Origin: a virus
DNA: 64,000 nucleotides
IMG/VR virus record: IMGVR_UViG_3300029827_000001
Coordinates: 1-64,000 of that record
Direction: 5' to 3' (one strand)
Position numbers and translations under genes: made by a program. Shown piece after piece: positions 40,727 to 63,500 of the stretch; the stretch's first letter is position 1; each line of letters opens with the position of its first letter. Under the pieces are notes generated by a model that did not search any database, was not told the DNA's origin, and saw only the letters and a list, made by a program, of their open reading frames with translations.

Positions 40727-41943
40727 TGCCAACCAAACCAGATAGATATGAATATACTTTTATACATAATGTTTATGCTCATTTCTTTAGTGATACTGCA
40801 AAGTATTTCTCTGAGCATGTTTGGCCAAGATTTGAGTGGGTAACAATTGGAACATACGATAAAGCTGTTGAGTATATAACAAAGAGGCAACAGGAGCAAA
40901 GGGAAACTGATAAACCGTTGCTTCCTGCTCTTATTCTAAATCCGACTGGTGATTGGAATGTTTCTGACTATGGGGGTAAGCAGTATTGGAGATTTCCAAA
41001 CTTGCAACCTGGAATGGTCGATAAATTATTTGACCCCATATATCAAGATCAGAATGTTTTAATCACTCCAGCTTTTACAAGAATAAGAGGAGATATAGAA
41101 TTAATTATGCTTCTAAACTCCTTTTATGAGTACTGTGATGTTAGAACATTATTTCTTTTAATATTTGGTGGTATGGAGAGAATAATCTATCCTCGATGGT
41201 TTCATAGTTTTATAATTCTTCCAGACGAGCTAATAAACTATAGATATGATAATCCAGTTACTGGACTTTCATATAAATTGGACTGGGACTCAGCAAATGC
41301 TAATCATCAACTAGTAAAAACTACGAACAGGAACGAGTTAGTTGTTCCCTGTCAAATTAGACCATGGTATAAACTAACTTCTATAGGAGATGCCAGTACT
41401 AGATATGGTGGAGATCGACTAGCAGACTGGCGACTTAGTGCTACAATTGAATATGAAGTTGAAATGCCAACTTTTCTTGTTATTAAATCAGATTATCTAG
41501 CTGAAAATATTGAGTGGGAATTAAGGTATGAGTCAGTTTATACAAAGTATCCTGATTATAATAGTGAACTTCCAGGAGACAGGAATTCTTGGAAAAGTCA
41601 TTGGGATTGGAATCTAGATGAAACATCTAGTACTATAATTGAGCTTGAGGATGGACCAGATATAGTTAAGTCAGAGGATTTTAGTTTTAAAACCAGATAT
41701 TTTCATGTGGTGACTACTGCTGAGGCTGACTCGACTTCAAACATTATAATATCCATGCCAGAAGCAATAACTGATGAGAAGCGGCTAATTGTAAATTCTT
41801 ATGATGGTCCACTAAGTTATTGGGATCATTATGAACTTATTGATAGTGGTACTAAGATGGTTATAAAAATACCGGAAGTTAAGTTAAATGAAGGAGATAT
41901 TATAGAACTATACGTTTATGAGGTAACTTATGAAAATCCTTGA
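40726..41943 (+). CDS. putative virion structural (tail/neck completion-like) protein
   Basis: Beta-rich, acidic, LPALILNP. Assignment from context only. Confidence 0.45.
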   Translation: MPTKPDRYEYTFIHNVYAHFFSDTAKYFSEHVWPRFEWVTIGTYDKAVEYITKRQQEQRETDKPLLPALILNPTGDWNVSDYGGKQYWRFPNLQPGMVDKLFDPIYQDQNVLITPAFTRIRGDIELIMLLNSFYEYCDVRTLFLLIFGGMERIIYPRWFHSFIILPDELINYRYDNPVTGLSYKLDWDSANANHQLVKTTNRNELVVPCQIRPWYKLTSIGDASTRYGGDRLADWRLSATIEYEVEMPTFLVIKSDYLAENIEWELRYESVYTKYPDYNSELPGDRNSWKSHWDWNLDETSSTIIELEDGPDIVKSEDFSFKTRYFHVVTTAEADSTSNIIISMPEAITDEKRLIVNSYDGPLSYWDHYELIDSGTKMVIKIPEVKLNEGDIIELYVYEVTYENP

Positions 41944-42490
41944 TAGGTACTTAGAAAGTTTGATAGGTCAAGAGGATAAAGTCCAAGTCGAAGTAAACGT
42001 TGCGGCAGCGGTAATAATGAGACTTGATGACACAGGAAGTCCCGAAGTACTGTTGATTCAAAGAGCCAGAGAAGATCATTGGCCCAGTCACTGGGAATTT
42101 CCTAGAGGAAAATGTGATCAAGGACCAGATGAGAAACTATACCCTTGTTTGAAAAGGGAAATAAAAGAAGAAACTGGACTTGATGTTATCCCTGTTAGGT
42201 TTATAAACAAATTCGAGTATCTGGCAGATGGGGGAACTAGGAGATCAACTCAGTATAACTATTTATGTAAAATGAAAGATCCTGGTCAACCTATTAAGTT
42301 ATCAAAAGAGCATCAAGACTATCGTTGGGTAAGAACTGCTGGAGAAGTTGAGCTTATGGTTAATGCAGGTGAGATGAAGAAGACTCTTGTAAAAGTTTTT
42401 GATTCAGACCATAAAGTAGTAACATATCCTGAGAACGGAGCAACTGAGAAGATTGAAGAATCCATTGAGAAACTATTAGGAAAAATATGA
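41930..42490 (+). CDS. NUDIX hydrolase
   Basis: WEFPRGKCD...LKREIKEETGL Nudix box, SKEHQDYRW. Confidence 0.9.
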   Translation: MKILDRYLESLIGQEDKVQVEVNVAAAVIMRLDDTGSPEVLLIQRAREDHWPSHWEFPRGKCDQGPDEKLYPCLKREIKEETGLDVIPVRFINKFEYLADGGTRRSTQYNYLCKMKDPGQPIKLSKEHQDYRWVRTAGEVELMVNAGEMKKTLVKVFDSDHKVVTYPENGATEKIEESIEKLLGKI

Positions 42491-42957
42491 AACTTATAAT
42501 TAGACAAACTGGATTTTTTCTATCATTAACTGGACTAAAACCATTTAGGACACCTGCAATAGTAGATATTTCAAAAGTAAATCTTAACACTCTCAAACTT
42601 GAATTGAAGCAACAAGGAGTTGGGAAGTATGAGATTTCTGAGGAACCTTATCTTCCCATATCTATAGAACCAGATAAAAAACCAGCGGTTAGTGATAGTT
42701 CAAATAAGTTAAATGAGATACATAAAATGTTGAGTCAATTGTTGTCTAGACAACCAACAGTTGAGCATCATTATCATGCTGCTGTACAAACTTTAGATAG
42801 ATTGGTTGAAGAGAAATCTGAACCTGATATAGAAGAATTTATTCCTGATATTGATCTTGAAGAATTCTCAGATGTTGAACTAGAATATAGAACTGAGAAA
42901 TCTGAAGATGCATTTGGTACAGCAGAAGCATTAAGAAAACTAAAAGGAGATAAATAG
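42487..42957 (+). CDS. hypothetical protein abutting the actin-like gene
   Basis: Acidic C-terminus EEFIPDID...ALRKLK. Stop abuts start of 42958. Confidence 0.65.
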   Translation: MKLIIRQTGFFLSLTGLKPFRTPAIVDISKVNLNTLKLELKQQGVGKYEISEEPYLPISIEPDKKPAVSDSSNKLNEIHKMLSQLLSRQPTVEHHYHAAVQTLDRLVEEKSEPDIEEFIPDIDLEEFSDVELEYRTEKSEDAFGTAEALRKLKGDK

Positions 42958-44046
42958 ATGAGTGATGAGAAGAAAAATGGCATCATCGAAGAACCTGCCA
43001 AGCAACCTCCACCGCCACCTCCAAAGAAAGAAGATAGTAGATTATTTGTAGGTCTAGATTGTGGGACAATGAATATATGTTGTGCTAGGAGTGATAATAA
43101 TGTAGTTAAAATTACTAGAAATGTTTTTCTTCCCTTAAATGATGAGTCGATCTCAATGTCTGAACTATCGAATATCAGCTATGTCAAATCGGATGATAAC
43201 GATTTATTTATTATAGGGGAAGATGCATTTAAATTTGCAAATATATTTGGTCAAGCTGTTTCAAGACCTATGGAGAAGGGACTAATTTCTCCAAAGGAGA
43301 TATCTGCTATTGATGTTCTAACATTAATAATTAGAGATTTAATAGGTCCAATAAAAGGTAAAGATGTATACTGTGCATATAGTATTCCTGCTGAAGCAAT
43401 TGATGAAAGTAGATCTGTTGTTTATCATACGAGAGTATTTGGAAGAATTCTCAGTGCACTTGGTATAAATCATAGACCAGTTAATGAAGGTGCAGCAATC
43501 ATATATTCTGAATGTAGTCAGGAGAGGTTCTCTGGAGTTGGCATATCTTTTGGAGCTGGAATGTGTAACGTTGCAATAATGTATAAAGGTGTAGAAGTAT
43601 TAAAATTTTCAACTTCAAGAAGCGGAGACTATATTGATAATTCTGTGGCTGAGTCTCTTAGTATAGTTCCTAATAGAGTTACCTCTTTAAAGGAAAGAAA
43701 ACTAGATTTAGCTAAGGGATTTGTAGCTGAGAAAGACAAAAAAATTAGGAGAGTTTTGGAAGCAATTGAGTATTACTATAATGCTCTTATAAATTATACT
43801 ATAAAGAAGATAATTAATGAATTTAATGAAAAAGTTGATATTGAAGTTGATGAAAGTTTGCCAGTCATTATATCTGGAGGAACTTCAATGCCAAACGGAT
43901 TCCTGGAACTATTCAAATCTACAATATCTCAATATGAGTTGCCTTTTGGAGTAAGTGAAGTTAGACGAGCAAAAAATCCACTTACTTCAGTTGCAAACGG
44001 TTTACTAGTATTGACACTTGCAGATTTTTCCGGAACAAAAAAATAA
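42958..44046 (+). CDS. actin-like ATPase, volactin-like family
   Basis: GLDCGTMN, GEDAFKFANIF, RPMEKG, NEGAAIIYSE, GISFGAGMCNV, ISGGTSMP, PLTSVANG. Confidence 0.85.
   Translation: MSDEKKNGIIEEPAKQPPPPPPKKEDSRLFVGLDCGTMNICCARSDNNVVKITRNVFLPLNDESISMSELSNISYVKSDDNDLFIIGEDAFKFANIFGQAVSRPMEKGLISPKEISAIDVLTLIIRDLIGPIKGKDVYCAYSIPAEAIDESRSVVYHTRVFGRILSALGINHRPVNEGAAIIYSECSQERFSGVGISFGAGMCNVAIMYKGVEVLKFSTSRSGDYIDNSVAESLSIVPNRVTSLKERKLDLAKGFVAEKDKKIRRVLEAIEYYYNALINYTIKKIINEFNEKVDIEVDESLPVIISGGTSMPNGFLELFKSTISQYELPFGVSEVRRAKNPLTSVANGLLVLTLADFSGTKK
44034..44045 (+). promoter_or_regulatory. putative late-type promoter AACA-N6-TA
   Basis: AACA-AAAAAA-TA just upstream of the GGAGGAG RBS of 44064. Confidence 0.5.
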
Positions 44047-44063: not shown

Positions 44064-44468
44064 ATGAAGCCAGAGAATATGGTAGATCTTATACTAGATG
44101 GAAAGTATAATAAAGTTAAAAAGGCTGAAAAAATTACTGATAGGTTACTAGAGTTTGAAGATGTTGAAACTACAACAGGCACTGATGTTGGAGATTCTTC
44201 TGGTCAACTATCTCCAGTTGATGATCTGAAAGATAAAAGAAAAGAAGACATCGCTGAAAAAATCAATACGGCCTTGAAAGAAGCTGATGAACTTACTGCT
44301 GATGATTTTAAAGACTACTTTGATGACCTCAAGAAGAAGGGTCTGACTGATGAAGATAAACTAAAGGGTATGCTTAGTCGGGCAAAAGAAATTGCGAAGA
44401 AGCAAGGTAAAGAGAATGATAAGCAAGCGGTTATGGGAATTATGCAAGGTTTCATGGGTGGAAAATAA
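44064..44468 (+). CDS. hypothetical charged protein (possible head internal/scaffold protein)
   Basis: LLE/LKE sites, strong RBS. Confidence 0.6.
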   Translation: MKPENMVDLILDGKYNKVKKAEKITDRLLEFEDVETTTGTDVGDSSGQLSPVDDLKDKRKEDIAEKINTALKEADELTADDFKDYFDDLKKKGLTDEDKLKGMLSRAKEIAKKQGKENDKQAVMGIMQGFMGGK

Positions 44469-44494: not shown

Positions 44495-45754
44495 GTGAGG
44501 AAAAGATTAAGGTACTCAGAGCAGCCCGTAGTAAAGGAGATAACGACTTCTGAACTAAAAAGGTTTGGCCTATCAGAAGATTCAGTAAGGTTGGTTGAAA
44601 GAATTGAGGAACTACGATCTGACCCTCCAAATATAATTATTGCTGAGTGTATCAAGACTGCTCACTTCATTCAAAATAAGTTTAAACAGCAAGTAGTAAG
44701 AAAGAAGAATAGATATGTAATGGGTCTCGGAGTCTATGAGCAGCTAAAATTTGAACCAAGATTAAGATCGAAGATTCTGAAACCTGCTAATGTAAAGTTT
44801 AAAAATATATATAGACCATATACTGGTCAAGATCTTGAGGATGAAACTTTACTAGTCTGGAGAACTGGAGGGATAGGAGATCTTCTTTTCATTCAACCAA
44901 ATTTAAATTATCTCAAAGAAATATATCCAACCTGTGAAATAATTCTTGGGTGTGGTCCTCAATATCAAGCAATGGTTGAGGATTGGCCTTCCGTTGATAA
45001 GATTCTAGATCTACCATTTCCATTTCAATATTTAATTCGTTCTGATTATCACGCGGTATTTGAAGGAGTTATTGAAAGATGTAAAGAAGCACAAATTACT
45101 AATGCTTATAACTTGTTTACTAGATGGTTAGGGTTGGATTTACCAAAAGAAAAGCTCCTTCCTAAGCAAACTGTAAAAGCTGATAAAGTTGAAGAATGTA
45201 AAAGAATACTAGAAGATGAATGGAATTTGGAAGGTATAGATTTTATTATAATTCAACTAAGAGCTAGTTCTCCCGTTAGGTCTCCTCGCTTAGGTCTTTG
45301 GGGTGATATAATAAATCGTATAACAAAGAATGACCATGTAGTAATTATTACTGATGCTCCTCATTATGCGAAGGAGATAGATTTTTTAATTGACAAGTTT
45401 ATAAAAGATAAAGACCTTGTGTTTAATTTTGCTCGTCATTCGAAAAGTTTAGATTATACAATTGCTCTCACATCTTTAGCAAAGATGGCAATATCAACTG
45501 ATACTGCGTTGATGCATCTTGCTGCTGCTCTAGATGTTAAGAGTTTTGGAATATATGGACCTTTTCCTGGAGAGATTCGACTTACTACTTATCCAAAAGC
45601 TAGATGGATAAATGTTCAATTACATTGTACTCCATGCTTTTTACATGGTCATAAACCCTGTCCGAACTCAGCATTAGATGGAACCTCTAAGTGTTATGAA
45701 GAGTTGAATTTAGATGAGTTTGCTGAAAAGGTTGAGGAACTCTATAATGATTAA
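44495..45754 (+). CDS. glycosyltransferase family 9-like (heptosyltransferase fold)
   Basis: RTGGIGDLLF, STDTALMHLAAAL..GIYGP, CTPC. Confidence 0.85.
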   Translation: MRKRLRYSEQPVVKEITTSELKRFGLSEDSVRLVERIEELRSDPPNIIIAECIKTAHFIQNKFKQQVVRKKNRYVMGLGVYEQLKFEPRLRSKILKPANVKFKNIYRPYTGQDLEDETLLVWRTGGIGDLLFIQPNLNYLKEIYPTCEIILGCGPQYQAMVEDWPSVDKILDLPFPFQYLIRSDYHAVFEGVIERCKEAQITNAYNLFTRWLGLDLPKEKLLPKQTVKADKVEECKRILEDEWNLEGIDFIIIQLRASSPVRSPRLGLWGDIINRITKNDHVVIITDAPHYAKEIDFLIDKFIKDKDLVFNFARHSKSLDYTIALTSLAKMAISTDTALMHLAAALDVKSFGIYGPFPGEIRLTTYPKARWINVQLHCTPCFLHGHKPCPNSALDGTSKCYEELNLDEFAEKVEELYND

Positions 45755-46577
45755 AATTGCAGTTACTATACGCAATCGACTTGCGATTACAAAAAAATGT
45801 GTAGCTGCGATTAAGAAACACTCAAAAATTCCTCATCAATTATATTTATATAATAACTCTACTAGTCATCTTATAAAAGAACATTTTGAGTATGCATATA
45901 ATCTCTACAGGCAAGGTTTAGTCACTCAGGTAACTTTTAATACAGATGCTAGTACATATAAAGCATTTAGTAAAGCTTCTGCATTAAATGCTTTCGGATT
46001 AGCTCATGAACAAGATCCAAACAAAGACAAATTTTACTACTTAGTATTTCTGGATAATGACGTTATTGTAACTCCAAATTGGGATTCTACTTTATATGAA
46101 GCCTGGAAATTTGTTAATGAAAAGAAATTATCTCATATAAAAGTAGTAGGTCAACTTCCTGGAGGAATAAAAAGTAGAACACCTTTAAAGACTACTGTTG
46201 CTGGATGTAATATGGCAACAGGAAAACTGGGTGGGTCTGGTCTATGGACTGTCAGATCAAATTTCTTTCGAGATGTTGGATTTCTTGAGATAAAAAATCT
46301 TATTGGCCATAATAAACGTCATGATCAGATGTACTGGAGTATAATGAATAGTAAGAATCATGGCAAAGATTATATTCTAGGTGTTAGGAAGAAGATTGGC
46401 TATCACTGTGGATCTTATGCTGGATCCGTATGTAATGTTTTGACAAAATCTGGTAAGAATATAGATAAGAATGAAGCAATAAAATTTGAGTCTCAGGAGA
46501 AATTAATTGAGTCAATGACATTTGAAGAATTTTATGAGAGGATAAGCGAGGATCCAAAACTTCAACGAGGTTGGTAA
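45747..46577 (+). CDS. glycosyltransferase family 2-like
   Basis: LYNNST, VFLDNDVIV. Confidence 0.75.
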   Translation: MIKIAVTIRNRLAITKKCVAAIKKHSKIPHQLYLYNNSTSHLIKEHFEYAYNLYRQGLVTQVTFNTDASTYKAFSKASALNAFGLAHEQDPNKDKFYYLVFLDNDVIVTPNWDSTLYEAWKFVNEKKLSHIKVVGQLPGGIKSRTPLKTTVAGCNMATGKLGGSGLWTVRSNFFRDVGFLEIKNLIGHNKRHDQMYWSIMNSKNHGKDYILGVRKKIGYHCGSYAGSVCNVLTKSGKNIDKNEAIKFESQEKLIESMTFEEFYERISEDPKLQRGW

Positions 46578-47494
46578 TGCAGGAAGCAGTCTTAATGGGT
46601 CCCTTTATTGGGGAGATGGGTTGGGAATTATTAAGGTTTGCTCCAATGCTCCCGTATATGAAGCTAAAGAAATATAAGAATCGAAATATAAAGTATATAA
46701 TCTTTACGAGGCCAGAGAGGTTTGACCTATATGGTGCTTGGGCAGATACTCTAGTGCCTCTTCGTATTGAAAATGACTATTACAAATATAAACCTGAATG
46801 CTTTAGAGCAATTGGTTTTTCAGTCGAGGACTATAAAAAATTAGCCCAACAGTTTAAACTACAATTTTCCAAAAGGTTTAAAATTGTTGAGCATATATTT
46901 CCCAACATAACTAAACCATCATACTTAAGAAAAAATCAATATCCACAAAAGTTAATGGTTTATGATTTTCGACCAAGAAAGTCTAACCGACTTTTGGTTA
47001 GTAAATATGTTCCTAATGATAAACCGGTTATAGTTCTTGGTCCTAGATTTAGGAAAGGGTTTAAAAGAAATTGGCCACATTGGCAGAAATTTTACAATAT
47101 GATTTCTATTAATAGCTGGTTAATGAATAATTTTCACTTTGTTATTTGTGGTAGAGAACCTGAGTATATCCCGGATGAGAAAGAAAGGTTTTTTGATATT
47201 AATAGTATTGAAGAAAGTGAAAGTAGTTCTCTAATTGGACTTACTCTTGAGACAATAAGGCGTTCTATATTAGTAGTTGGATCTCAATCTGCTATACCAA
47301 ATATTGGAATGATTTTAAAAGTTGAAGTACTACAGTGGGGCAATGAACCAAAAGAACATACGAAAACTTATAACGTATTTAATACGAAAGTACACTTCAT
47401 TACTGATAGGCAGTATCAAACAAAACCAGAAAAAGTTATCTCAGAAATGACGAAAATTCTAAAAACTAAACTTCATGAAGGAGTAAAGAAATGA
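46577..47494 (+). CDS. putative GT-B fold glycosyltransferase
   Basis: GPFIGEMGWE, RNWPHW, VGSQSAIP. Confidence 0.6.
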   Translation: MQEAVLMGPFIGEMGWELLRFAPMLPYMKLKKYKNRNIKYIIFTRPERFDLYGAWADTLVPLRIENDYYKYKPECFRAIGFSVEDYKKLAQQFKLQFSKRFKIVEHIFPNITKPSYLRKNQYPQKLMVYDFRPRKSNRLLVSKYVPNDKPVIVLGPRFRKGFKRNWPHWQKFYNMISINSWLMNNFHFVICGREPEYIPDEKERFFDINSIEESESSSLIGLTLETIRRSILVVGSQSAIPNIGMILKVEVLQWGNEPKEHTKTYNVFNTKVHFITDRQYQTKPEKVISEMTKILKTKLHEGVKK

Positions 47495-51304: not shown

Positions 51305-52300
51305 ATGAGAATTCTTTTTAACTCAGTGAATTGTGGGTTAGGTAATAATGGCGGGTCTTCAACTATAGTACATTCTGCTAATACCCTTATTGAACTGGGG
51401 CATGACGTTAAAATTATTGATAGCATGAGAAATCAGTTTACTTGGTTTGAGCTAAAGGCAAAACATATAGTCTTAAAAGATCTAAATGATAGTCCAGACG
51501 CAGATGTTGTAATTGCAACTGGTTATAAAACTGTTAGCTCTACCCTTAGGTTGCCAAAAAGGTGTGGGATTAAAGCACATTGGATAAGAGCATGGGAACA
51601 CTGGCAAATGTCAGATGATCAGATTTTTACTAGAGTACTAAACGTTCCAACTATAAAGTTAGTTAATAGTATATGCCTACAAAGGAAACTAGAACAATAT
51701 CAAATTTCTTCCCATATAGTTCGTCCTGGATATGATTTTGGAAAGTTGTATCCTCTAAACTTAAGAAATTATAATAGGGGAGAATTTGTAGTAGGAGCTT
51801 TATACCGAGAAGGAGTTCATGGACAAAGAAAAAGAACCAAATGGTCTCTTGATATTATAAAAGAACTAAAATCAAGAAAAAGAATAAAATTCTGGATGTT
51901 TGGGTCTGAACCAAAACCAAATTTTTCTTTCATTGATAACTATCTGAAATCTCCATCATTCCAGGAGAAGAATGATTTTTATAATAGAGTACATTTATGG
52001 ATTGCTCCTACAATGTCTGAAGGTTTACACTTACCCCCTGCTGAAGCAATGATGACTGAATGTCCGGTTGTTGGTACCAATGCTCAAATGAGTGGTATGC
52101 AAGACTACTTAATTGATAGAGAAACTGGTAGAGTTTCTGGAGATAGTATAAGTTCCTTTAGAGAAACTATCAGAGAAGTTCTTGATGATCCTAAAAGCAT
52201 GGAACAGATGGGAAAAAAAGCTAGGCTAAAAATAGCTGATCTTGGAGATAGAAAAACTAATATGTATCTAATGGTAAACTATTTGAAGAGTTTAATATGA
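51305..52300 (+). CDS. glycosyltransferase family 4
   Basis: GG..TI..AN.L..LGHDV, SEGLHLPPAEAMMTECPVV. Confidence 0.85.
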   Translation: MRILFNSVNCGLGNNGGSSTIVHSANTLIELGHDVKIIDSMRNQFTWFELKAKHIVLKDLNDSPDADVVIATGYKTVSSTLRLPKRCGIKAHWIRAWEHWQMSDDQIFTRVLNVPTIKLVNSICLQRKLEQYQISSHIVRPGYDFGKLYPLNLRNYNRGEFVVGALYREGVHGQRKRTKWSLDIIKELKSRKRIKFWMFGSEPKPNFSFIDNYLKSPSFQEKNDFYNRVHLWIAPTMSEGLHLPPAEAMMTECPVVGTNAQMSGMQDYLIDRETGRVSGDSISSFRETIREVLDDPKSMEQMGKKARLKIADLGDRKTNMYLMVNYLKSLI

Positions 52301-53130
52301 GCGTAAAAATATATAAAGTCAAAGAGATTTTAGATAGCTTAGAGGAATGTATAGTTGAGAGAAAACCTTTCTCTCTAATAAGATTTGGAGATGGAGGGAT
52401 CAAATTGATCCACTCATATTTCTATAGAGATTATAATCAGTTGCTTAAGATATGTAAAAAAGAAGGTCTACCGAATGATAAAGTTGAACATATAATTAGA
52501 CTTTGGGCAAGATATGCAAACGAAGCTGATTTTATTGACTCTCCTCAAGTATATTTCTCTAATAAATTCTGGGGTAAATACAAAAAAGGGTTTATCCACG
52601 CTTCTGATAAAACTTTAATTAGAATGAAAATGTGGAAGGATTTATATCAAAGGGCAGGTATTGATATTCATAAGGTCAAATTCTGTAACCCAGAAGTAAA
52701 TTACTTGATGTGTATAACTATACCTTCTAAAAGAACTATTTTTGAGTTAATGAAAGGTAGAAAAATATGTTGTATAACGTCTTGTCCTGAAGCGATTAAT
52801 AATTTATCAAAGTATAATATTGACGTTGTCAAGATTGTTGGGCACTATGAAAATCAGTTTGAAAATTCTTTCTCAGATGTAGTTAGTGTTATTGAAGGAA
52901 GAGCACTGTTATATGACTTTTGGATGGTTGGTGCTGGAGAACTTGGGAGAATATACTCAGGTTTGATAAAAGCTAGAGGTGGTCGAACTATTGATATGGG
53001 ATTTGTTATTGACTATTGGAAGAATCATGAGATACCAGCACGTCTTGGTGAATTTGTATCTTCTCATCCACTAGATCCTCTGAAATTTGTCTTAACTAAA
53101 TATGGAAATCCCTATGCAGACCATATCTAA
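52297..53130 (+). CDS. GT-D fold-like glycosyltransferase
   Basis: SLIRFGDG, VGAGELG, TIDMG. Confidence 0.7.
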   Translation: MSVKIYKVKEILDSLEECIVERKPFSLIRFGDGGIKLIHSYFYRDYNQLLKICKKEGLPNDKVEHIIRLWARYANEADFIDSPQVYFSNKFWGKYKKGFIHASDKTLIRMKMWKDLYQRAGIDIHKVKFCNPEVNYLMCITIPSKRTIFELMKGRKICCITSCPEAINNLSKYNIDVVKIVGHYENQFENSFSDVVSVIEGRALLYDFWMVGAGELGRIYSGLIKARGGRTIDMGFVIDYWKNHEIPARLGEFVSSHPLDPLKFVLTKYGNPYADHI

Positions 53131-53857
53131 GATTGATATTACAATGACAAGTGTTCTTCGACCTGGAATAGTTAATGAAACGCTTGAGTCATTTTGTAAT
53201 AATCTCTTTACCGAAAAGAGCAGGTATCGCCTAGTAATCAATATTGATCCAGTTGGTGAGAAAGTAAAAGCAAAAGAAGTAGTAAAAGTTTGCCAAAAAT
53301 ACTTTGATGATGTTGTTTATAATATTCCAAACAAACCATCTTTTCCAGCAGCTGTAATATGGACATGGAAAAATTCCAGGTCAGATTGGGTTTTTCACCT
53401 TGAAGATGATTGGAAGATAAATAGTAAAGTTGACATAAATCATATGATCAGCATACTTAATAAGTATAAAGATGTTGCTTGTCTCAGAATGTCAAAACAT
53501 CCTCTTCCTAGGAGAAAGATAATTAAGCTATTTAGATCGAATTATAGTTTTAAACCAGAAGGTTTTTTTATTGGTCAAGATAGAAAAGCTCAGTTTGGAC
53601 TGAATCCTGTACTTATAAGAGGAAAATTCATTAAACGAGCATTACCATATATGGTTACTACTAAGAACCCTGAGAAGCAGTTTAGATATGGCAATGAACT
53701 TCTAAGAGACTTTATTATGAAATGGAGATATGCTATTTATGGAAGACCAGGTCAAGGTGCTCTAGTGGTTGATAACGGATCAAAATGGAGGAAAGATTTT
53801 GGATTTGATAAACCAGACCCAGAGGAGGGTCCGTTTTTAGTATGGAAAAAGAAATAA
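53102..53857 (+). CDS. glycosyltransferase family 2-like
   Basis: TSVLRP, FHLEDDW, LNP. Confidence 0.75.
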   Translation: MEIPMQTISKIDITMTSVLRPGIVNETLESFCNNLFTEKSRYRLVINIDPVGEKVKAKEVVKVCQKYFDDVVYNIPNKPSFPAAVIWTWKNSRSDWVFHLEDDWKINSKVDINHMISILNKYKDVACLRMSKHPLPRRKIIKLFRSNYSFKPEGFFIGQDRKAQFGLNPVLIRGKFIKRALPYMVTTKNPEKQFRYGNELLRDFIMKWRYAIYGRPGQGALVVDNGSKWRKDFGFDKPDPEEGPFLVWKKK

Positions 53858-54609
53858 AATTATTCTGGAGTCGTCAAGATAATAATTTTGGAGATAAATT
53901 ATCTCCTTATATTGTTGGAAAAATATCTAAAAGAAAAGTAAAATATTGTAATTCTCCAACTCCAACTAGAACAGTATATTTGGCTGTTGGAAGTATTTTA
54001 CATCATTTAGGTTCTTCTATGAAATGGTGTGAAATTTGGGGTTCTGGTTTAATGGATCAGAATCATAAATTGTTATCTCCCAAGAAGATTCATGCAGTTA
54101 GAGGTCCACTAACTAGACAATTTCTAATAAGACAGAGTATAAATTGCCCAGACATTTATGGAGATCCAGCTCTTTTATTACCTCGGTTATTTAATCCTGA
54201 CATTGAGAAAAAATATAAAGTTGGTATTGTTCCACACTTCGTCGATCAAAAAGATAACTGGATTGGTATTCAATGTTTAAGAAAAGATGTTTTGTTTATA
54301 GATGTTTATGAACCTGTTGAGAAAGTTATTACTAACATTTTATCTTGTCAAGCAATCCTTTCTAGTTCTCTACATGGTTTAATTGTTGCAGATGCATATA
54401 GAGTTCCATCCTTATGGATTGAACTATCTGGTAAAGTAAAAGGAAAAGGTTTTAAGTTTAGAGATTATCTATTATCTGTTGGAGTTGAACCTTATAAACC
54501 ATATACTCTTGGTCTTCCTTATAGGAGTATTGATGCCCCTTTGAGGTTTGTAAAGAAATATGATCTAAAGATTGATCTGGATAAGCTTTTAGAGAGTTGT
54601 CCATTCTGA
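53842..54609 (+). CDS. polysaccharide pyruvyltransferase
   Basis: NFGDKL, VGSIL, WGSG, AVRGPLT, GDPALL, SSSLHGLIVADAY, FKFRDY. Confidence 0.9.
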   Translation: MEKEIKLFWSRQDNNFGDKLSPYIVGKISKRKVKYCNSPTPTRTVYLAVGSILHHLGSSMKWCEIWGSGLMDQNHKLLSPKKIHAVRGPLTRQFLIRQSINCPDIYGDPALLLPRLFNPDIEKKYKVGIVPHFVDQKDNWIGIQCLRKDVLFIDVYEPVEKVITNILSCQAILSSSLHGLIVADAYRVPSLWIELSGKVKGKGFKFRDYLLSVGVEPYKPYTLGLPYRSIDAPLRFVKKYDLKIDLDKLLESCPF

Positions 54610-54621
54610 GGAGTTACAAAA

Positions 54622-55902
54622 ATGAAAATTACTTTGATATATCTACCTCATCCGTATTTAAAGCAACCAGATGCTCAGGCTCCTTTGGGTATTATGTATC
54701 TGGCATCAGTCATAGAAGAAAATGAATTTGAAGTTGAAATAAAAAATTATTCTTCTTACTTAACATATGAAGCGATTGCTGACCTTAATGAATCTGACTT
54801 TTATGGAATAACAGTAACCAGTTTAGAACTTCCACAAGCAAATAGATTTGCATACCTTATAAAGGAAAAGTTTCCAGAAGCAATTATTGGTTTAGGTGGT
54901 CCCGGAACTTATACAGAAGAGTTTGTTGACTGGTCAGTTGTGGATACTATTTGCAAGGGAGAAGGTGAGATTACTTTTCTTAATATGTTAGAAGATGTAA
55001 GGAATAAGAAACTAAAGAAAATCTACAACGGTCAAATAGTTGATAATCTTGATACAATTCCATTTCCATCAAGAGATTTACTTAAGGATAAGCAAGGAGG
55101 AAATATCTTTGCGTATAACAAAACATATAAAGAAGGAGGTAGTACCGTTCTCTTAACATCTCGTGGATGTCCTTTTAAATGTACTTTCTGCTCAGCTCCC
55201 AAGTTTACTTATAGTAAGAAGGTTCGTCATAGAAGTTCCAAGAATGTTAAACAAGAAATAGAGCATGTCATCCAGAAGTATGGCATAAGGCAATTCAGAA
55301 TTTCAGATGATATGTTTACTGCTAATAGAGATAGAGTCCTAGATTTATGTGATCACTTGAGTTCCCTTGATATAGTATGGAGAATTTCGACTAGAGTTAA
55401 ACCAATTGATTATGAGATGTATAAAATTATGTTTGAATCTGGTTGTCGAGAAGTTTCTTTTGGAATTGAAAGTTTTGACGACGATGTATTAAAAGTTTTA
55501 AGAAAGGGAACTACCTCTAAAGATAATGCTAGAGCATTAGAGATAGCTCATCAAGTTGGAATGAAAAGCAGAGTTTTATTTATGATAAGAACTCCAGGTC
55601 AAACTAAGGAGACAGTTAAAAAGAATATTGAGTGGCTACAGAAAGTTCCATACGATATTATTTGTGTAACTAGTTTTGTTCCCTTACCTGGTTCTGAGAT
55701 ATGGGAAAAACCAGATGAGTTTGGAGTAGAAATTTTATCTAGAAATTTAGATGACTATAATTTTTACTTCTTCGGTTCTTCAGGAGAGAATGAACTAAAA
55801 AATGTAATTAAGATTAAAAACAGAAGTTTGGAAGAGTTTAATGAAGAAACGCAGTATTTTAAGGATTGGATTAAGGCAACTGGTAAATTGAATATTGGGT
55901 AA
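54622..55902 (+). CDS. cobalamin-binding radical SAM enzyme
   Basis: PLGIMYLAS, GGP, GEGE, TSRGCPFKCTFC, FGIES. Confidence 0.9.
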   Translation: MKITLIYLPHPYLKQPDAQAPLGIMYLASVIEENEFEVEIKNYSSYLTYEAIADLNESDFYGITVTSLELPQANRFAYLIKEKFPEAIIGLGGPGTYTEEFVDWSVVDTICKGEGEITFLNMLEDVRNKKLKKIYNGQIVDNLDTIPFPSRDLLKDKQGGNIFAYNKTYKEGGSTVLLTSRGCPFKCTFCSAPKFTYSKKVRHRSSKNVKQEIEHVIQKYGIRQFRISDDMFTANRDRVLDLCDHLSSLDIVWRISTRVKPIDYEMYKIMFESGCREVSFGIESFDDDVLKVLRKGTTSKDNARALEIAHQVGMKSRVLFMIRTPGQTKETVKKNIEWLQKVPYDIICVTSFVPLPGSEIWEKPDEFGVEILSRNLDDYNFYFFGSSGENELKNVIKIKNRSLEEFNEETQYFKDWIKATGKLNIG

Positions 55903-55907
55903 AAAGC

Positions 55908-56603
55908 ATGAGCATACTGAATGAATCTCAAGAGCAACGTGATATAGAACTATCTAAGATAACCAAAATCTCTCTGAAAAAGATTAAATCAATTATACCG
56001 AAAAGTCCTGACTCAATAAGAATTTATGATGGGCAGTCTTCTATTAAAAGTGAAAATGATATTCTATCATTGTATAAAGAGTATAAGTGTTTAGATATTA
56101 TTGCGTACTTAAAAACTTTAATGGTTACTAGTATTGAATCTAGACATCGTGAACTATACTCTCTTATTAGAAAAACTAGTAGAAAAGTGTGCCTAGATTT
56201 TGGAAGTGGAGTTGGAACTCATGCAATTGCTCTATTTGAGAATTCCAATGAAGTTTCTATACTCGATGTCCCAGGGCCTCTTCTTAATTTTACTTTAGAT
56301 CGAGTTAGGTTAAGAGGATTTAATCCAAAGGTTTACTACCATGATTCTCAACTGCCCGATTCATTCTTTGATTTAGTTATTTGTACCGATGTATTAGAAC
56401 ACGTATATGATCCAGTACGAGAGTTAGCAAGAATAACCAATTGCTTAAAGAGATCTGGTATATTACATCTACAAGTCAGTTCAAAGATTAAACCTTCTTC
56501 TGGTCATTTTGAATCTTCAATTAGAAAGTGGAAAATTGAGGGACCTAAGTTTCTTGGTGGTAACTATAAGAAAATTGGTGAAACTATATATAGGAAATTA
56601 TGA
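55908..56603 (+). CDS. class I SAM-dependent methyltransferase
   Basis: LDFGSGVG, FDLVICTDVLEHV. Confidence 0.85.
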   Translation: MSILNESQEQRDIELSKITKISLKKIKSIIPKSPDSIRIYDGQSSIKSENDILSLYKEYKCLDIIAYLKTLMVTSIESRHRELYSLIRKTSRKVCLDFGSGVGTHAIALFENSNEVSILDVPGPLLNFTLDRVRLRGFNPKVYYHDSQLPDSFFDLVICTDVLEHVYDPVRELARITNCLKRSGILHLQVSSKIKPSSGHFESSIRKWKIEGPKFLGGNYKKIGETIYRKL

Positions 56604-57085
56604 TGATTACTGCTAAACTTACTCAGGGGAAAAATTGCTCCATATCTAAAAACGCGCTTATAGGATTTAAGGAACACGGTGGAGAAATTATTCTTGGTAA
56701 CAATGTTGTAATCCGGCATGGAGTGATTCTAAGAACTTGTACTGGTGTAATAAAGATTGGCAATAATACTATTATTAACTATCATTGTATTATGCATGGA
56801 CTTGGTGGAATCACAATTGGTAATGATGTTGTGTTTAGTCCATATGTTCAAATATATGCTCAAAACCATGGAATCTTACCAGATAAGTTAATACGAGAAC
56901 AAAAGAATACTGGTCAGGGAGTCATAATAGGAAATGATGTTTGGATAGGTGCAGGAGCAATTATTACAGATGGAGTAATGGTTCAAACTGGATCTATAAT
57001 AGGTGCAGGTTCAATTGTAACAAAAAATATTGGAAGTTATCAGATATGGGCAGGAAATCCTGCTAGAAAAATTGGAGATAGATAA
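56600..57085 (+). CDS. hexapeptide-repeat acyltransferase (sugar O-acetyltransferase-like)
   Basis: IGNDVWIGAGA, GAGSIVTK, AGNPARKI. Confidence 0.9.
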   Translation: MMITAKLTQGKNCSISKNALIGFKEHGGEIILGNNVVIRHGVILRTCTGVIKIGNNTIINYHCIMHGLGGITIGNDVVFSPYVQIYAQNHGILPDKLIREQKNTGQGVIIGNDVWIGAGAIITDGVMVQTGSIIGAGSIVTKNIGSYQIWAGNPARKIGDR

Positions 57086-57673
57086 TTGAAGAAGTTAAAG
57101 AATATACCAGTTTTGGTAAAGTGGATTCATTGGAGAATGTCGAATTTAGTGAGTGAGTATGAACCTACTAGCATTATTGATATGGGTGGGGTTGGAAGAA
57201 TAAAGAGTTTTGTAAACTGTAAAGTTGTAGATGCAAATCTTAAAGCGGGAATTGATGCAACTAAATTACCATTTAAAGATAACTCATTCGATATATCCTT
57301 ATCAATTAATACTTTAGAGCATATTAAGAATAAAAAGAAATTTCTCTTAGAAGCAATTCGAGTAGCAAAAGTTGCTTCGATACATTGGTTTCCTTATGGA
57401 GCAGGTGCTAAACTAACTGAGAAGTTAAAAAAAGAGCTTGGCCACAAGCACCCCTGTAGTATCCCAGAATATCAGGATATTCTCCCATTTTTAACTGACT
57501 CAAAGACTAGTTGTAAATTTAAAGAATCTATAAGTTGTAAAGATCATTTACTGCTGTTAGCATCTATAAATGAAAAAATGAATAACAGTAAAACATTTGA
57601 GTTTATTGAGAAATACGGAAACGTACCTTATAGTTTTATCTTGTCAGCAGAATATCGAAGAGGTGAAGAATGA
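57086..57673 (+). CDS. class I SAM-dependent methyltransferase
   Basis: IDMGG, DATKLPFKDNSFD, TLEHI. Confidence 0.75.
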   Translation: MKKLKNIPVLVKWIHWRMSNLVSEYEPTSIIDMGGVGRIKSFVNCKVVDANLKAGIDATKLPFKDNSFDISLSINTLEHIKNKKKFLLEAIRVAKVASIHWFPYGAGAKLTEKLKKELGHKHPCSIPEYQDILPFLTDSKTSCKFKESISCKDHLLLLASINEKMNNSKTFEFIEKYGNVPYSFILSAEYRRGEE

Positions 57674-58563
57674 AGATTCTCTATTTTTCGGACGGATATG
57701 CTTGGCATGTTATGGGAACCAAACGCTCGATTTATGAAGAAGTTCAGAAACGGGGTCATGAAGTTATCTATCTTGATAAGGGTTTAGTTTGGAATATACC
57801 ACAACTTATATTTGATCATAATCCGGATCAGATTTGGTTAGTTCATACTGGATTATCTTTCTCGGGACAAGATAGAAAGAAAATAAAAGTACCAATTGTT
57901 GGGTTCGGTTTTAGTGATCCAGTGTATAGAATTATAGACTATAGTATCTTTGATATTTATGTAACTAACCATTTTGAGACATATAAGAAGGTTTCAAAAA
58001 AGATGAAATGTATTTATAACCCAACTGCGTGTGATCTTAAATTTCACCAGAAACTTAGCATTCCAAAAACGACAGATCTCTTAATGATTGGAACTGGAAC
58101 TCATGCTAGGTTTAAGAGTAAGAAAATGAGAATAACATATGTTAATAAACTTAGAAAAGATACAAGTTGGATTGTCACAGCGTATGGAAAAAATTGGCCT
58201 AAGCATATTAGAAATCATGGTCATATTGAAGGTCAAGAATTTCTAGTTGCTATAAATAGCGCAAGATTAGGTTTAGATATCCAAGATGAAGTATCTCCTT
58301 TAGCTCATAGGATGTTTGAATTTGGAGCGTGTGGAGTTCCAGTTATAACCAAACACAGACCAGAAGTCTTAATACATCTTGAAGATGGTAAAGAAATTCT
58401 AACCTATCATAACTATAATGACCTTTTGGAGAAAGTAAATCATTATCTTAATAACCAATCTGAGTTAGAACAAATAAGTACAAATGTATTGGAAAGGTGT
58501 GTGAGAGACCATAATATAAGTAATAGGGTTAATCACATATTGGCAGAACTTCAACGAGGGTAA
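57670..58563 (+). CDS. CgeB-like glycosyltransferase
   Basis: RMFEFGACG, EDGKEI..Y, DHNISNR. Confidence 0.8.
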   Translation: MKILYFSDGYAWHVMGTKRSIYEEVQKRGHEVIYLDKGLVWNIPQLIFDHNPDQIWLVHTGLSFSGQDRKKIKVPIVGFGFSDPVYRIIDYSIFDIYVTNHFETYKKVSKKMKCIYNPTACDLKFHQKLSIPKTTDLLMIGTGTHARFKSKKMRITYVNKLRKDTSWIVTAYGKNWPKHIRNHGHIEGQEFLVAINSARLGLDIQDEVSPLAHRMFEFGACGVPVITKHRPEVLIHLEDGKEILTYHNYNDLLEKVNHYLNNQSELEQISTNVLERCVRDHNISNRVNHILAELQRG

Positions 58564-58566
58564 TAA

Positions 58567-59598
58567 ATGACTAAGGACTTTTGGTTATTTAGAACAAACC
58601 TGAGGCCATTAGAGTATTACCATCAGTATAAGAGCTTAGAAAACTTTGAAAAGAATTGTCATGACTTTTATCTACTAATGGGAATATGGTTTCTTAGAAA
58701 CCACATATACGATAACTTTATTGTCTGGCGACTAAACCCGAAAAGACAGAAATTAGCAGATATTACTTTTAATATAGATGGTAAGAAATTTATCCAGAGA
58801 TGGGTAGATAACTTTAATGAAGTATTCGATTACATCCCACCAAAAATTTCCTTCTTTCGAGGAGGATTCCCTGAGTACTGTAAACTTACAAAAATCAATC
58901 CTGACCATTTTGGGAAGAAACTATACCTCGGTGCTGGCAAAAGAGTCTATCCTCAGCATGGTGGTAACTATGATTTAATACTTTTAGAAAGTGAAAAAGA
59001 TAATCAAAACGAATATAAAACTGCACCTTTCTATAAAACTGCTAATAATGAGATATTTAAACCACTTGGAATGCCAAAAAAATATAACCTATGCTGGATT
59101 TGTAATTTTGCTCAAATAAGGCACAAAGGTCAAGAATTTTTTATAAGTGAGATTTCTAAATCTATTCACTTAAAAGGATTATCTATTGTTCACTTGGGGA
59201 ATAAACCAGAAGATGGGCAAAGAATGTGTAAGAAATATGGAGTTAATAATATTGACTTTGTTGGGTGGGTTGAAAGACCAATTCTAAATGAGTATCTAAA
59301 TTCTAGTTTTTTTGGGGTAGTAACATCAAATGAGCAAGATGGTTGTCCTAGAGTTATAACAGAAATAATGATGTCTGGAGTACCTCTACTATTAAGAAAA
59401 AGAACTAGACTCCTTGACTTCTATAAAAGGTCTGGAGTAATAATATTTGATGATAAAAGTTTAGAAATGAAGATACAGCACGCGATGCATAAGTATCAAG
59501 ATTATAATAATCAAGCGAAAAAAAATGTTGAAGAAAAACTAATCATGGATAAAGTCTGTAATATGAACTTAAATCTATGGAACAACTCAAAAAAATGA
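58567..59598 (+). CDS. GT-B glycosyltransferase (family 1/4-like)
   Basis: HKGQ, DGCPRVITEIMMSGVP. Confidence 0.75.
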   Translation: MTKDFWLFRTNLRPLEYYHQYKSLENFEKNCHDFYLLMGIWFLRNHIYDNFIVWRLNPKRQKLADITFNIDGKKFIQRWVDNFNEVFDYIPPKISFFRGGFPEYCKLTKINPDHFGKKLYLGAGKRVYPQHGGNYDLILLESEKDNQNEYKTAPFYKTANNEIFKPLGMPKKYNLCWICNFAQIRHKGQEFFISEISKSIHLKGLSIVHLGNKPEDGQRMCKKYGVNNIDFVGWVERPILNEYLNSSFFGVVTSNEQDGCPRVITEIMMSGVPLLLRKRTRLLDFYKRSGVIIFDDKSLEMKIQHAMHKYQDYNNQAKKNVEEKLIMDKVCNMNLNLWNNSKK

Positions 59599-60954: not shown

Positions 60955-61036
60955 CTTTGGGACAGTAACCAAAGAACTATATGAGACATAAATTTTGGAT
61001 ATGAGAACATATTATAAAAATGAAAGGAGTAGTTTT

Positions 61037-61636
61037 ATGGTAAATTTAGGTCCATTAAAAGAAGATGTGCGAGATCTATTAATTCTTTATAGCGGCGGAG
61101 CAGATAGTCGGTTGATGCTGGAAATCGCTTTTAGAACAAATAGAAAGCCTTATTGTCTACTAATTGATTATGGACAATTACATAAAGAAGAACTAGATTT
61201 TGCTGTTAATCAACTTGACAAACTTAAAGTTCCTTGGCAATTAGTCTCAGTATCAGGTTTACTATATGATAGTGCTTTAACTGGAAGTGGTGAGCAGGGC
61301 ACGTTTGGAAGTAAAGATGAAATTAGTATTTTTCATGTTCCAGGTAGAAATACAATGTTTGCAGGCATTGCACTAGGAGTTGCTGAGAACAAAAGGATCA
61401 GTGAGATTTGGCATGGGGCTGATTTTTCAGATCGTTTAAATCTATTTCCAGATTGTTATCAAGAGTATGCAGTTAAGTTGAATGAATTATTTGCAATTGC
61501 TGGCCCAAGTCCAATTAAATATTTAGTTCCTTTAGCTGGTATGACAAAAGAGATGATACTTGATTTACTAAAAGCATATGGGGTTAATTTAGCTACTATT
61601 TTTTCAGGATATGGAGAGATTCAAGCAGAGTTATAA
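61037..61636 (+). CDS. queC: QueC-like PP-loop protein lacking the C-terminal Zn-binding motif
   Basis: YSGGADS, DYGQ, VPGRN, PDC, MTK. Ends TIFSGYGEIQAEL. Start ATG 61037 with AAGGAG. Confidence 0.75.
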   Translation: MVNLGPLKEDVRDLLILYSGGADSRLMLEIAFRTNRKPYCLLIDYGQLHKEELDFAVNQLDKLKVPWQLVSVSGLLYDSALTGSGEQGTFGSKDEISIFHVPGRNTMFAGIALGVAENKRISEIWHGADFSDRLNLFPDCYQEYAVKLNELFAIAGPSPIKYLVPLAGMTKEMILDLLKAYGVNLATIFSGYGEIQAEL

Positions 61637-63113: not shown

Positions 63114-63500
63114 ATGGTGGTGAAAATGGATCCAACTAAACCTGGAAAAATTATTGGAATTATTGGTACTAGAAGAAGAGATAGATTTAATGACTATAAA
63201 GTAGTTGAGGAAGCATTCTTTAAAGCTTATGAAGAAGGTGATTGGATTTGCTCTGGTGGTTGTCCTCAGGGCGGAGATAGATTTGCTGAAAAGATTGCAA
63301 AGAAGTATGGAATACCAATTCTTATATTTTATCCGGATTGGAAAAAGTTTGGTAGAGGAGCGGGTATTGTAAGAAATACTTATATAGCATTAATGTCTGA
63401 TATTTTGATTGCTTGCGTTGCAGAAGATAGAACTGGTGGATCTGAAGATACCATTGAAAAGTTTGAGAAATATAAGAAAATGGAGGCGGTGTTAGTATGA
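63114..63500 (+). CDS. SLOG-family (DprA/YspA-like) protein
   Basis: IGIIGTR, SGGCPQGGD, AGIVRN..IA..SD, TGGS. Confidence 0.8.
   Translation: MVVKMDPTKPGKIIGIIGTRRRDRFNDYKVVEEAFFKAYEEGDWICSGGCPQGGDRFAEKIAKKYGIPILIFYPDWKKFGRGAGIVRNTYIALMSDILIACVAEDRTGGSEDTIEKFEKYKKMEAVLV

Follow-up and report, generated by a model that had tools for sequence, protein, structure and literature searches.

A putative two-gene cytoskeletal module of huge phages: a volactin-family actin and its candidate cargo adaptor

The stretch of DNA analysed here (called the window below) has a length of 64,000 nucleotides and represents the first 64 kb of a linear 86,762-bp IMG/VR virus record (IMGVR_UViG_3300029827_000001), which was rated 28% complete by CheckV; this completeness implies a genome near 300 kb. 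Two adjacent genes in the window encode a partner protein of 156 amino acids (aa) and, directly downstream, a volactin-family actin-like ATPase of 362 aa. We consider it reasonably probable that the pair forms a two-gene phage cytoskeletal module, consisting of a volactin-family filament and a dedicated cargo adaptor.

The two genes are located on the plus strand (42487..42957 and 42958..44046; Table 1). The stop codon TAG of the partner gene (42955-42957) directly abuts the start codon ATG of the actin gene (42958), which agrees with the coupling described in an earlier note on this DNA, and a Shine-Dalgarno sequence, AGGAG (42943-42947), is placed 10 nt 5' of the actin ATG, within the partner gene. 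At the other side, the end of a NUDIX hydrolase gene overlaps the partner start by ATGA, leaving no intergenic space upstream of the partner start. Because the NUDIX, partner and actin genes are packed so tightly, they are probably co-translated.

The actin matched the Pfam model Volactin (PF25216) almost from end to end (profile positions 3-319 of 321), with an E value of 1.7e-70 and 238.5 bits against a cut-off of 35, and a six-frame search of the record gave an agreeing score of 238.6 bits. The match with Pfam MreB_Mbl (18.7 bits) stayed below the cut-off of 27, and so did the NCBIfam matches with BeeR (29.4 against 530), MamK (24.9 against 400) and MreBH (20.7 against 515). No ParM-type Pfam family was matched at E<=0.01, and there was a weak partial PHROG match with a 'partition protein' (phrog_691, E 7e-6, residues 179-351). 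The earlier note had proposed a likeness to volactin rather than to MreB or ParM, and the library scores bear this out well beyond chance; all the motifs on which it relied (QPPPPPPKK, GLDCGT, GEDAFKFANIF, RPMEKG, YH, NEGAAIIYSE, GISFGAG, SGGTS and PLTSVANG) are present in the translation. The bacterial relatives of volactin that it mentioned exist as well, as chromosomal genes of Planctomycetota, one of them on an 838-kb contig with 220.9 bits (locus L110). The family is large, with 1015 representatives at a threshold of E<=0.001, of which 299 remained at E<=1e-30.

The nucleotide-binding motifs are strongly conserved. In an alignment of 32 close relatives (A1), G32, D34, G36 and T37 of the phosphate-1 motif, S197, G199, A200 and G201 of the phosphate-2 motif, and S306, G307, G308 and T309 of the adenosine motif were invariant. 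Among 63 representatives of the whole family, G36, G201 and G307 were still invariant, and D34 and T37 were conserved in at least 90%. The Pro-rich N-terminal extension, also seen earlier, is predicted to be disordered at residues 1-23, with a predicted local distance difference test score (pLDDT) below 50 for residues 1-17 and 19-23, and it is variable among the close relatives in A1.

The AlphaFold model of the actin showed an actin fold, with a pLDDT of 85.3 and a predicted template-modelling score (pTM) of 0.83. A Foldseek search of the PDB gave the MamK filament as best match (5ljv_A, E 2.2e-14, template-modelling (TM) scores 0.69/0.76, root-mean-square deviation 3.4), followed by the BeeR filament (8r2n_A), many MreB entries, and then eukaryotic actin and Arps. 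Rows 1-26 were occupied by MamK, BeeR, MreB, actin and Arp, EutJ appeared first at rank 27, and neither an Hsp70 nor a sugar kinase was found in the top 50 PDB rows. A grouping with Hsp70 or kinases, which the earlier note had named as one of the outcomes that would speak against a filament, was therefore absent, and the fold sits with the polymerising actins MamK, BeeR, MreB and actin. A profile of the phage clade found no PDB sequence at E<=0.01, and in a viral structure library the best TM scores were 0.52-0.60, for unnamed proteins, Gp506 of Bacillus phage G and Hsp70 homologues.

Phylogenetic analysis was performed on 81 rows by a quick maximum likelihood method (LG+G4), rooted on MreB of Escherichia coli, which forms a very long branch; actin ORFs (open reading frames) shorter than 300 or longer than 450 aa were excluded, and duplicates were collapsed. 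Archaeal cellular volactins formed one clade with SH-aLRT support of 100, and viral sequences formed three: one containing the window (clade A, 99), a larger one (clade B, 99) and a small one (L005-L007, 100). The backbone of the tree was unresolved and its root weak, and with this backbone and the long outgroup the window actin was placed outside the archaeal cellular clade. The phylogeny proposed in the earlier note, with volactin and MreB included, put the window into a viral clade. Since the viral clade is distinct from the archaeal clade, the window actin is, judged from its sequence, a member of the Pfam family belonging to a separate phage subfamily.

Some relatives of the actin showed unusual architectures. 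P0123, P0124, P0125 and other relatives of about 700-800 aa are 54-57% identical with the window actin and match it in two stretches; in P0123 an intein (Intein_splicing, Hint, HNH) interrupts the sequence after about residue 191, immediately ahead of the phosphate-2 motif. Such an insertion into a conserved ATPase site is in keeping with a phage gene that is under selection. In P0214 (1160 aa), a volactin domain is joined to Wzz, GNVR and a ParA/MinD-type P-loop domain, which is the architecture of a polysaccharide co-polymerase tyrosine kinase, and this arrangement hints that the actin family is linked, in some organism, to the synthesis of envelope polysaccharides. P0126, P0134 and P0163 have N-terminal extensions of 160-580 aa that carry no annotation.

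The partner had no match in Pfam, PHROG or NCBIfam and no usable neighbour in the ESM Atlas, and by this lack of library matches it is a new family at the sequence level. In IMG/VR, 239 of 255 pattern-matched stretches encoded a relative of the actin, and the best 80 were fetched, giving 79 contigs. The partner family was defined by our own iterative hidden Markov model (HMM) search, in which every ORF of 97 fetched loci was screened; the search converged on 79 ORFs (67 unique), every one upstream of an actin gene and on the same strand. The partner was present in 63 of 70 distinct viral actin loci, upstream and on the plus strand in all 63. It lies within 60 nt of the actin gene in 31 of them; in the other loci the distance upstream is 69-2053 nt, and one to three genes intervene. 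Four of the loci lacking it have limited upstream sequence (258 nt in L006, 44 in L088, 958 in L060 and 2046 in L049). G000, G005, G007 and G008, among them complete or near-complete relatives, each have one copy of the partner gene, immediately upstream of the actin gene. The conservation of the gene pair, for which the earlier note had asked, is thus confirmed, and an upstream gene that does not travel with the actin, which it had named as a refuting outcome, was not what we found.

The partners of clade A and clade B could be aligned by hhalign with 88.6% probability (E 2.6e-6), only over the C-terminal 51 columns. We also considered a larger conserved module and rejected it: among 10 neighbour families of clade A and 13 of clade B, the only similarity detected by hhalign was between partner and partner. 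Because no other neighbour family is related between the two clades, the conserved unit is the pair itself. The shared C-terminal part contains an [FY][ILV]P motif, found in 63 of 67 unique partner sequences, and about 20 residues after the motif an amphipathic helix which ends in basic residues; P120 and L149 are nearly invariant. The model of the partner showed an N-terminal alpha/beta domain (residues 1-52, beta-beta-beta-alpha-beta, pLDDT about 96-97), followed by helices at 71-87 and 92-107, a short helix after the motif, and the terminal helix at 143-153. Structural matches of the middle region were only generic coiled coils with Z<=4, and this region varies in length in the alignment. 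For the fold of the N-terminal domain, Foldseek found nothing in the PDB at E<=0.001, and the best VIA match had a Z of 4.0, with ACT-like or coiled-coil entries. Neither a transmembrane segment nor a recognised membrane-targeting domain was predicted in the actin or the partner, and no further protein with the docking tail was found in the 86.7-kb record.

Binding of the partner to the actin was predicted by one co-fold of the two full-length proteins, each with its own alignment. The interface score ipSAE was 0.75, 0.75 and 0.74, against 0.01 for the best control; this mark was reached by 116 of 157 solved complexes and by 2 of 215 mismatched pairs, counts which are only rough because own alignments were used here. 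The runs agreed in at least 73% of contacts, and the pLDDT of the partner was at least 61. All confident partner contacts fell within residues 115-153, the same tail that had been singled out from conservation before co-folding, and the N-terminal domain of the partner made no contact with the actin. The tail packs on the actin helix 177-185, the loop 187-191 and the C-terminal helix 344-357, with the tightest contacts between the terminal helix of the partner (142-150) and actin residues 183-191 and 348-355. By secondary-structure position, the contacted elements are the helix after the NEGAAIIYSE strand and the C-terminal helix, and from this we take it that they would border the cleft between subdomains IA and IIA. 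This cleft receives the C-terminal helix of ParR on ParM, and WH2, gelsolin and profilin on actin. The two-protein model suggested in the earlier note came out with the tail on the actin, and the term adaptor, which it had used for the upstream gene, fits a protein that is conserved beside the actin and whose tail is predicted to dock on it.

In the mechanism we propose, the actin-like ATPase, with its intact nucleotide-binding motifs, would polymerise, and the translationally coupled upstream protein would serve as its dedicated adaptor. The adaptor tail, made of the [FY][ILV]P motif and the terminal amphipathic helix, is predicted to dock on the actin, while the N-terminal domain, separated from the tail by a helical spacer that varies in length, would stay free and would bind the cargo. 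Inside the infected bacterium, the filaments could then position or move this cargo, which may be phage DNA or the replication factory, capsids, or a membrane site, and we infer that the module would have an effect on infection. Such a module may be analogous to AlpA-AlpC, to ParR-ParM and to the PhuZ spindle. As a wider and more tentative idea, possible rather than likely, at least two unrelated huge-phage lineages may build their own actin cytoskeleton from a volactin filament and a modular adaptor that combines a conserved actin-docking tail with a lineage-specific cargo domain, for positioning the replication compartment or trafficking capsids.

Several points weigh against the module as proposed. 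There are no centromere-like iterated repeats near the pair (35.5-48 kb), where only two- or three-copy repeats at chance level occur, and the whole 64 kb holds only five short arrays of 2-3 copies. Because iterated repeats, an upstream intergenic space and a recognisable DNA-binding N-terminal fold are all lacking, a classic ParMRC or AlpACS system is counted against. The N-terminal domain of the partner has no recognisable DNA-binding or other fold, it is only slightly basic in the partners of clade A (net charge +1 to +5) and neutral in those of clade B, and homology of this domain between the two clades was unsupported; from the fold and the homology result, the cargo may differ between lineages. 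Three loci (L005, L007 and L023) have no partner despite ample upstream sequence. The co-fold score is the model's own confidence, and part of it could come from a learned docking mode in the actin cleft, as a bacterial-actin complex with a peptide in the cleft, that of ParM with a ParR peptide, has reportedly been solved. Finally, the interface residues of the actin are not more conserved than the rest (0.76 against 0.77 in A1, and 0.41 against 0.47 family-wide).

Three other explanations were weighed. The pair may manipulate the host envelope or cell shape in an MreB- or volactin-like manner, by organising the synthesis of envelope or polysaccharide or by deforming the cell, and the partner would be a regulator or, by means of its basic amphipathic C-terminus, a membrane tether. 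Such a role has a precedent in Haloferax volactin, which in the available text of its description is a shape determinant whose filament tips touch the membrane (PMC10869688), and it would agree with the surroundings in clade A, where a GT9 heptosyltransferase-like gene and two further conserved genes come after the pair, with the large cluster of glycosyl- and methyl-transferases at 51.3-59.6 kb of the window, and with the fusion of P0214 to Wzz/GNVR/ParA-type polysaccharide co-polymerase kinase parts. However, the glycosyltransferase surroundings are confined to clade A, and the clade B pair is in an unrelated context; the basic amphipathic helix at the end of the partner is buried against the actin in the co-fold and is therefore not free for membrane binding, and neither protein has a predicted membrane segment or membrane-targeting domain. 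We regard this explanation as unlikely.

The second would be partition of the type II ParMRC kind: in a carrier or pseudolysogenic state, the genome of the phage would be kept as an episome at low copy number, and the partner would bind the centromere. An actin with a small adaptor docking by its C-terminal helix is the architecture of ParM-ParR, the weak match to phrog_691 (E 7e-6) points in the same direction, and one actin-bearing record (G012) is classed as provirus by IMG/VR. Nevertheless, centromere-type repeats are lacking in 35.5-48 kb and elsewhere in the window, the partner start overlaps the preceding gene so that no upstream intergenic region is left, the N-terminal domain is not a recognisable ribbon-helix-helix or helix-turn-helix, the actin has no ParM-type Pfam match at E<=0.01, and complete relatives have direct terminal repeats and a T4-/AR9-like lytic gene set, which makes partition still less probable than a role in the envelope. 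Least probable, to a degree that we scarcely expect it, is a non-polymerising ASKHA ATPase (chaperone-, kinase- or EutJ-like) with an unrelated upstream gene that is merely co-transcribed. Polymerisation of the actin is only inferred, EutJ appears at PDB rank 27, and the near matches in the viral structure library are mostly Hsp70 homologues, with low TM scores of 0.5-0.6; but the Volactin match is full-length, the top 26 PDB rows are structures of MamK, BeeR, MreB, actin and Arp, and the partner is conserved across lineages and predicted to bind the actin (0.75 against 0.01). These fold neighbours and the conserved partner make a non-polymerising role unlikely, and the filament with a cargo adaptor is the reading that we prefer.

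The nearest characterised relative is volactin (VolA, HVO_2015) of Haloferax volcanii, which forms dynamic filaments in vivo according to the available text (PMC10869688). The phage actin belongs to the same Pfam family and has the same actin-fold ATPase motifs, whereas phage proteins score 209-260 bits on the Pfam model and archaeal genes 370-420, and the phage actins form clades of their own (99 and 99) apart from the archaeal one (100), with the backbone between them unresolved. The setting is also different, a bacteriophage here and a haloarchaeal cell there. The partner was absent from all eight archaeal-type loci (L010-L017). In seven of these eight, a gene belonging to one cluster lies immediately upstream of volactin and on its strand; the two upstream genes that were scanned (L010 and L015) encode DUF7139 membrane proteins whose N-terminal halves are hydrophobic and which are unrelated to the phage partner (hhalign probability 0.2%). 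The DUF7139 protein may be a membrane anchor for cellular volactin filaments. A docking motif common to partner and DUF7139 was considered, as the tails look alike by eye, and was rejected with the same hhalign value, the tail HMM having no archaeal match at E<=10. The small third viral clade (L005-L007; about 36% identity, 260 bits on the Pfam model) lacks the partner family and has other small ORFs upstream, of 113 aa in L005 and 107 aa in L007, and the latter matched the tail HMM weakly (E 0.17).

AlpC-AlpA of the Corynebacterium glutamicum prophage CGP3 is the closest precedent in its organisation: in the published text available, the adaptor binds the filament and links phage DNA to it, alpA lies upstream of alpC and is co-transcribed with it (PMC4446434), and the phage needs both alpA and alpC to replicate efficiently (PMC4446434, PMC5539076). 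As in that system, the adaptor gene is upstream of a phage-borne actin, in an order kept in 63 of 63 partner-bearing loci, and the abutting stop and start codons with the Shine-Dalgarno sequence inside the partner gene suggest a co-transcribed adaptor-actin pair of the AlpAC type. The actin family is probably different here; AlpA binds alpS repeats upstream of its operon, and no such repeats are near the phage pair; and CGP3 is a cryptic actinobacterial prophage, while the window belongs to a jumbo lytic-type phage. With ParM-ParR the likeness is an actin-like filament and a small adaptor with a C-terminal docking helix (predicted here), but in ParM-ParR-parC the gene order is reversed relative to the phage pair and there are centromere repeats, none of which were found here; the phage partner has no recognisable ribbon-helix-helix domain, and the actin no ParM-type Pfam match. 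PhuZ is described, in the available parts of two papers, as an NTP-driven filament of jumbo phages that organises the infected cell (PMC13282480, PMC7950403). A phage-encoded filament in jumbo phages would be common to both, yet PhuZ belongs to the tubulin superfamily and the phage protein here to the actin superfamily. MamK, BeeR and MreB are the nearest solved structures, with likeness at the fold level only, their sequence scores being far under the family cut-offs.

The record has the gene content of a large tailed phage. Structural genes encode a T4-type portal, a baseplate hub with OB domain, PAAR and tape-measure-like proteins; replication genes encode UvsX/RecA, a Dda-like helicase, a DnaB-type helicase, a clamp loader, a primase and RuvC; and there are also a ribonucleotide reductase and a family-B polymerase fused to a uracil-DNA-glycosylase (UDG) domain. 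Because the gene set includes two peptidoglycan hydrolases (one Amidase_2, one GH108 with PG_binding_3), the host is, judged from gene content, a bacterium with murein. The best cultured matches of the portal are AR9, PBS1 and phiR1-37, with about 25-29% identity. A complete relative, G005, has 277,131 bp and direct terminal repeats and is rated 100% complete; its actin is 86% identical to that of the window, and 11 of 11 queried window proteins match with their order kept. Four DNA runs, all belonging to a single study of marine sediment, contain the window DNA, and no RNA dataset is among those listed for it.

An archaeal host (Asgard or Thermoplasmatota) was considered, since the nearest database homologues of the actin (62-70% identity, hundreds of clusters) include proteins with Heimdallarchaeaceae or Thermoplasmatales labels from metagenome-assembled genomes (MAGs), and was rejected. 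One such contig (L008, DAOVGR010000028.1, 54.5 kb, from a 'Thermoplasmatales archaeon' MAG) is syntenic with the phage, matching 9 of 11 queried window proteins in the same order, and the same MAG separately holds an archaeal-type volactin (405.7 bits). It means that a phage contig was binned into an archaeal MAG, which is no evidence of an archaeal host; the peptidoglycan hydrolases of the phage also argue against one. Two Heimdallarchaeaceae-named proteins, P0028 and P0055, are 65-66% identical to the phage actin, and by sequence they are probably mis-binned phage genes.

The earlier note had compared the phage with phiKZ-like jumbo phages, and this holds only loosely. In its favour, two genes similar to the beta subunit of multi-subunit RNA polymerase (msRNAP; PF00562) were found in the 277-kb relative G005 and two in G008, and G007 matched in two separate places; the 86.7-kb record itself had no match. 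Against it, chimallin (PF25677) was detected in none of five records, including the complete G005, by a narrow Phikzvirus model which worked on the phiKZ positive control and which a divergent shell protein could escape; Tubulin (PF00091) was likewise not detected in five records, in a set overlapping but not identical with the former; and the PhuZ C-domain (PF22334) was found in none of 10 actin-bearing records, three of them complete; G005 gave no match to either model. In addition, the portal is of T4 type, with about 29% identity to AR9/PBS1, and clade B (360-450 kb) has no msRNAP beta match.

Table 1. Positions of the actin-partner pair, its parts and the neighbouring genes in the window
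Feature	Position	Strand	Basis
Partner (putative adaptor) gene, new family	42487..42957	+	ORF; no Pfam/PHROG/NCBIfam match
Partner N-terminal folded domain, residues 1-52, presumed cargo-binding end	42487..42642	+	AlphaFold model
Partner helical/coiled-coil-like middle, residues 71-107	42697..42807	+	Model; length varies among relatives
Partner C-terminal tail, predicted actin-docking, residues 115-153	42829..42945	+	Conservation and co-fold
F118-I119-P120 motif in partner tail	42838-42846	+	[FY][ILV]P conservation
Partner terminal amphipathic helix, residues 143-153	42913-42945	+	Model and conservation
Volactin-family actin-like ATPase, 362 aa	42958..44046	+	Pfam PF25216, 238.5 bits, and model
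Actin disordered Pro/Lys-rich N-terminal extension, residues 1-27	42958..43038	+	pLDDT; variable in relatives
Actin phosphate-1 motif GLDCGT, residues 32-37	43051..43068	+	Conservation
Actin phosphate-2 motif GISFGAG, residues 195-201	43540..43560	+	Conservation
Actin adenosine motif SGGTS, residues 306-310	43873..43887	+	Conservation
NUDIX hydrolase gene, neighbour in clade A only, outside the module	41930..42490	+	Pfam NUDIX, E 7.4e-17
Charged 134-aa ORF downstream, outside the module	44064..44468	+	Homologues only in nearest relatives

The two genes that flank the pair are not kept with it. The NUDIX gene is syntenic across clade A loci, and a comparison of neighbour families by hhalign found no relative of it in clade B loci. 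Homologues of the charged 134-aa ORF are confined, among the fetched loci, to L002-L004 and L020-L022; other clade A loci have an unrelated small gene in its place (hhalign probability 3.4%).

Further genes of the record were also noted. The family-B DNA polymerase, with 1085 aa and an N-terminal uracil-DNA-glycosylase-superfamily domain, is encoded at 69940-73197 of the genome (L018:6940-10194), near a thymidylate-synthase-like gene (L018:12351-13211), and QueC is encoded in the window at 60995-61636. The polymerase, the thymidylate-synthase-like gene and QueC, together with the likeness of the portal to those of AR9, PBS1 and phiR1-37, which have dU-DNA, suggest by sequence that the phage may have non-canonical DNA bases. 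Accessory genes at 448-927, 15502-16422, 16989-17312, 21099-21500 and 63114-63500 encode a Lar-like restriction alleviation domain, a Cas4-like/PD-(D/E)XK exonuclease (phrog_1706), a KhpA-type KH-domain protein, a LigD 3'-phosphoesterase domain and a YspA/SLOG-family protein. Two blocks of sugar- or small-molecule-modifying genes (44495-47494 and 51305-59598) hold GT9 heptosyltransferase-like, GT1-family and GT-D-like transferases, a polysaccharide pyruvyl transferase, a B12-binding radical SAM enzyme, three methyltransferases and a hexapeptide acyltransferase; they may act on the host envelope, the virion or the DNA.

The pair is found in large genomes of more than one kind. At least 21 of the 79 fetched contigs were longer than 200 kb, and clade B contains five records with lengths of 363-452 kb, of which two are complete and have terminal repeats; in none of the five was an msRNAP beta or PhuZ C-domain match detected. 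As clade B is without msRNAP and the lineage of about 277 kb has it, the pair occurs in at least two different huge-phage backgrounds. In a collection of 50,697 phage records, only two uncultured huge phages matched the actin, with 34-38% identity. One 297-kb record (IMGVR_UViG_3300025141_000016) carries two different actin-partner pairs (L093 and L097), at about 128-137 kb and at the contig end, which could be paralogous modules or an assembly join of two related phages.

Full-text literature searches, which did not cover supplements, found no paper on volactin-type actins in phages, and among the papers searched the only studied phage actin was AlpC of a cryptic prophage. In the available text of a 2026 review on jumbo phages, the cytoskeleton passages deal with PhuZ, and the sole term beginning with 'actin' is 'Actinobacteria' (PMC13282480). 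The novelty is a putative pairing of actin and adaptor in which the actin is of a different family and the adaptor family is new, and which is widespread in huge phages.

Work on phage cytoskeletons has been dominated by the tubulin PhuZ of nucleus-forming jumbo phages, and the volactin family, so far characterised only in a haloarchaeon, is now found in 239 IMG/VR stretches. Phage contigs mis-binned into archaeal MAGs could mislead inferences on the archaeal cytoskeleton. The docking tail of 40 residues gives a directly testable handle, and if the proposed module is real, it would offer a compact two-protein system for the study of the coupling of prokaryotic actin with cargo. Organisation of the infected cell by a self-encoded cytoskeleton would then be commoner in huge phages than present work suggests. 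On the wider and more tentative idea given above, the module would be an actin counterpart of the PhuZ spindle and would point to an old exchange between phage and cellular cytoskeletons, within a family otherwise known from the control of archaeal cell shape.

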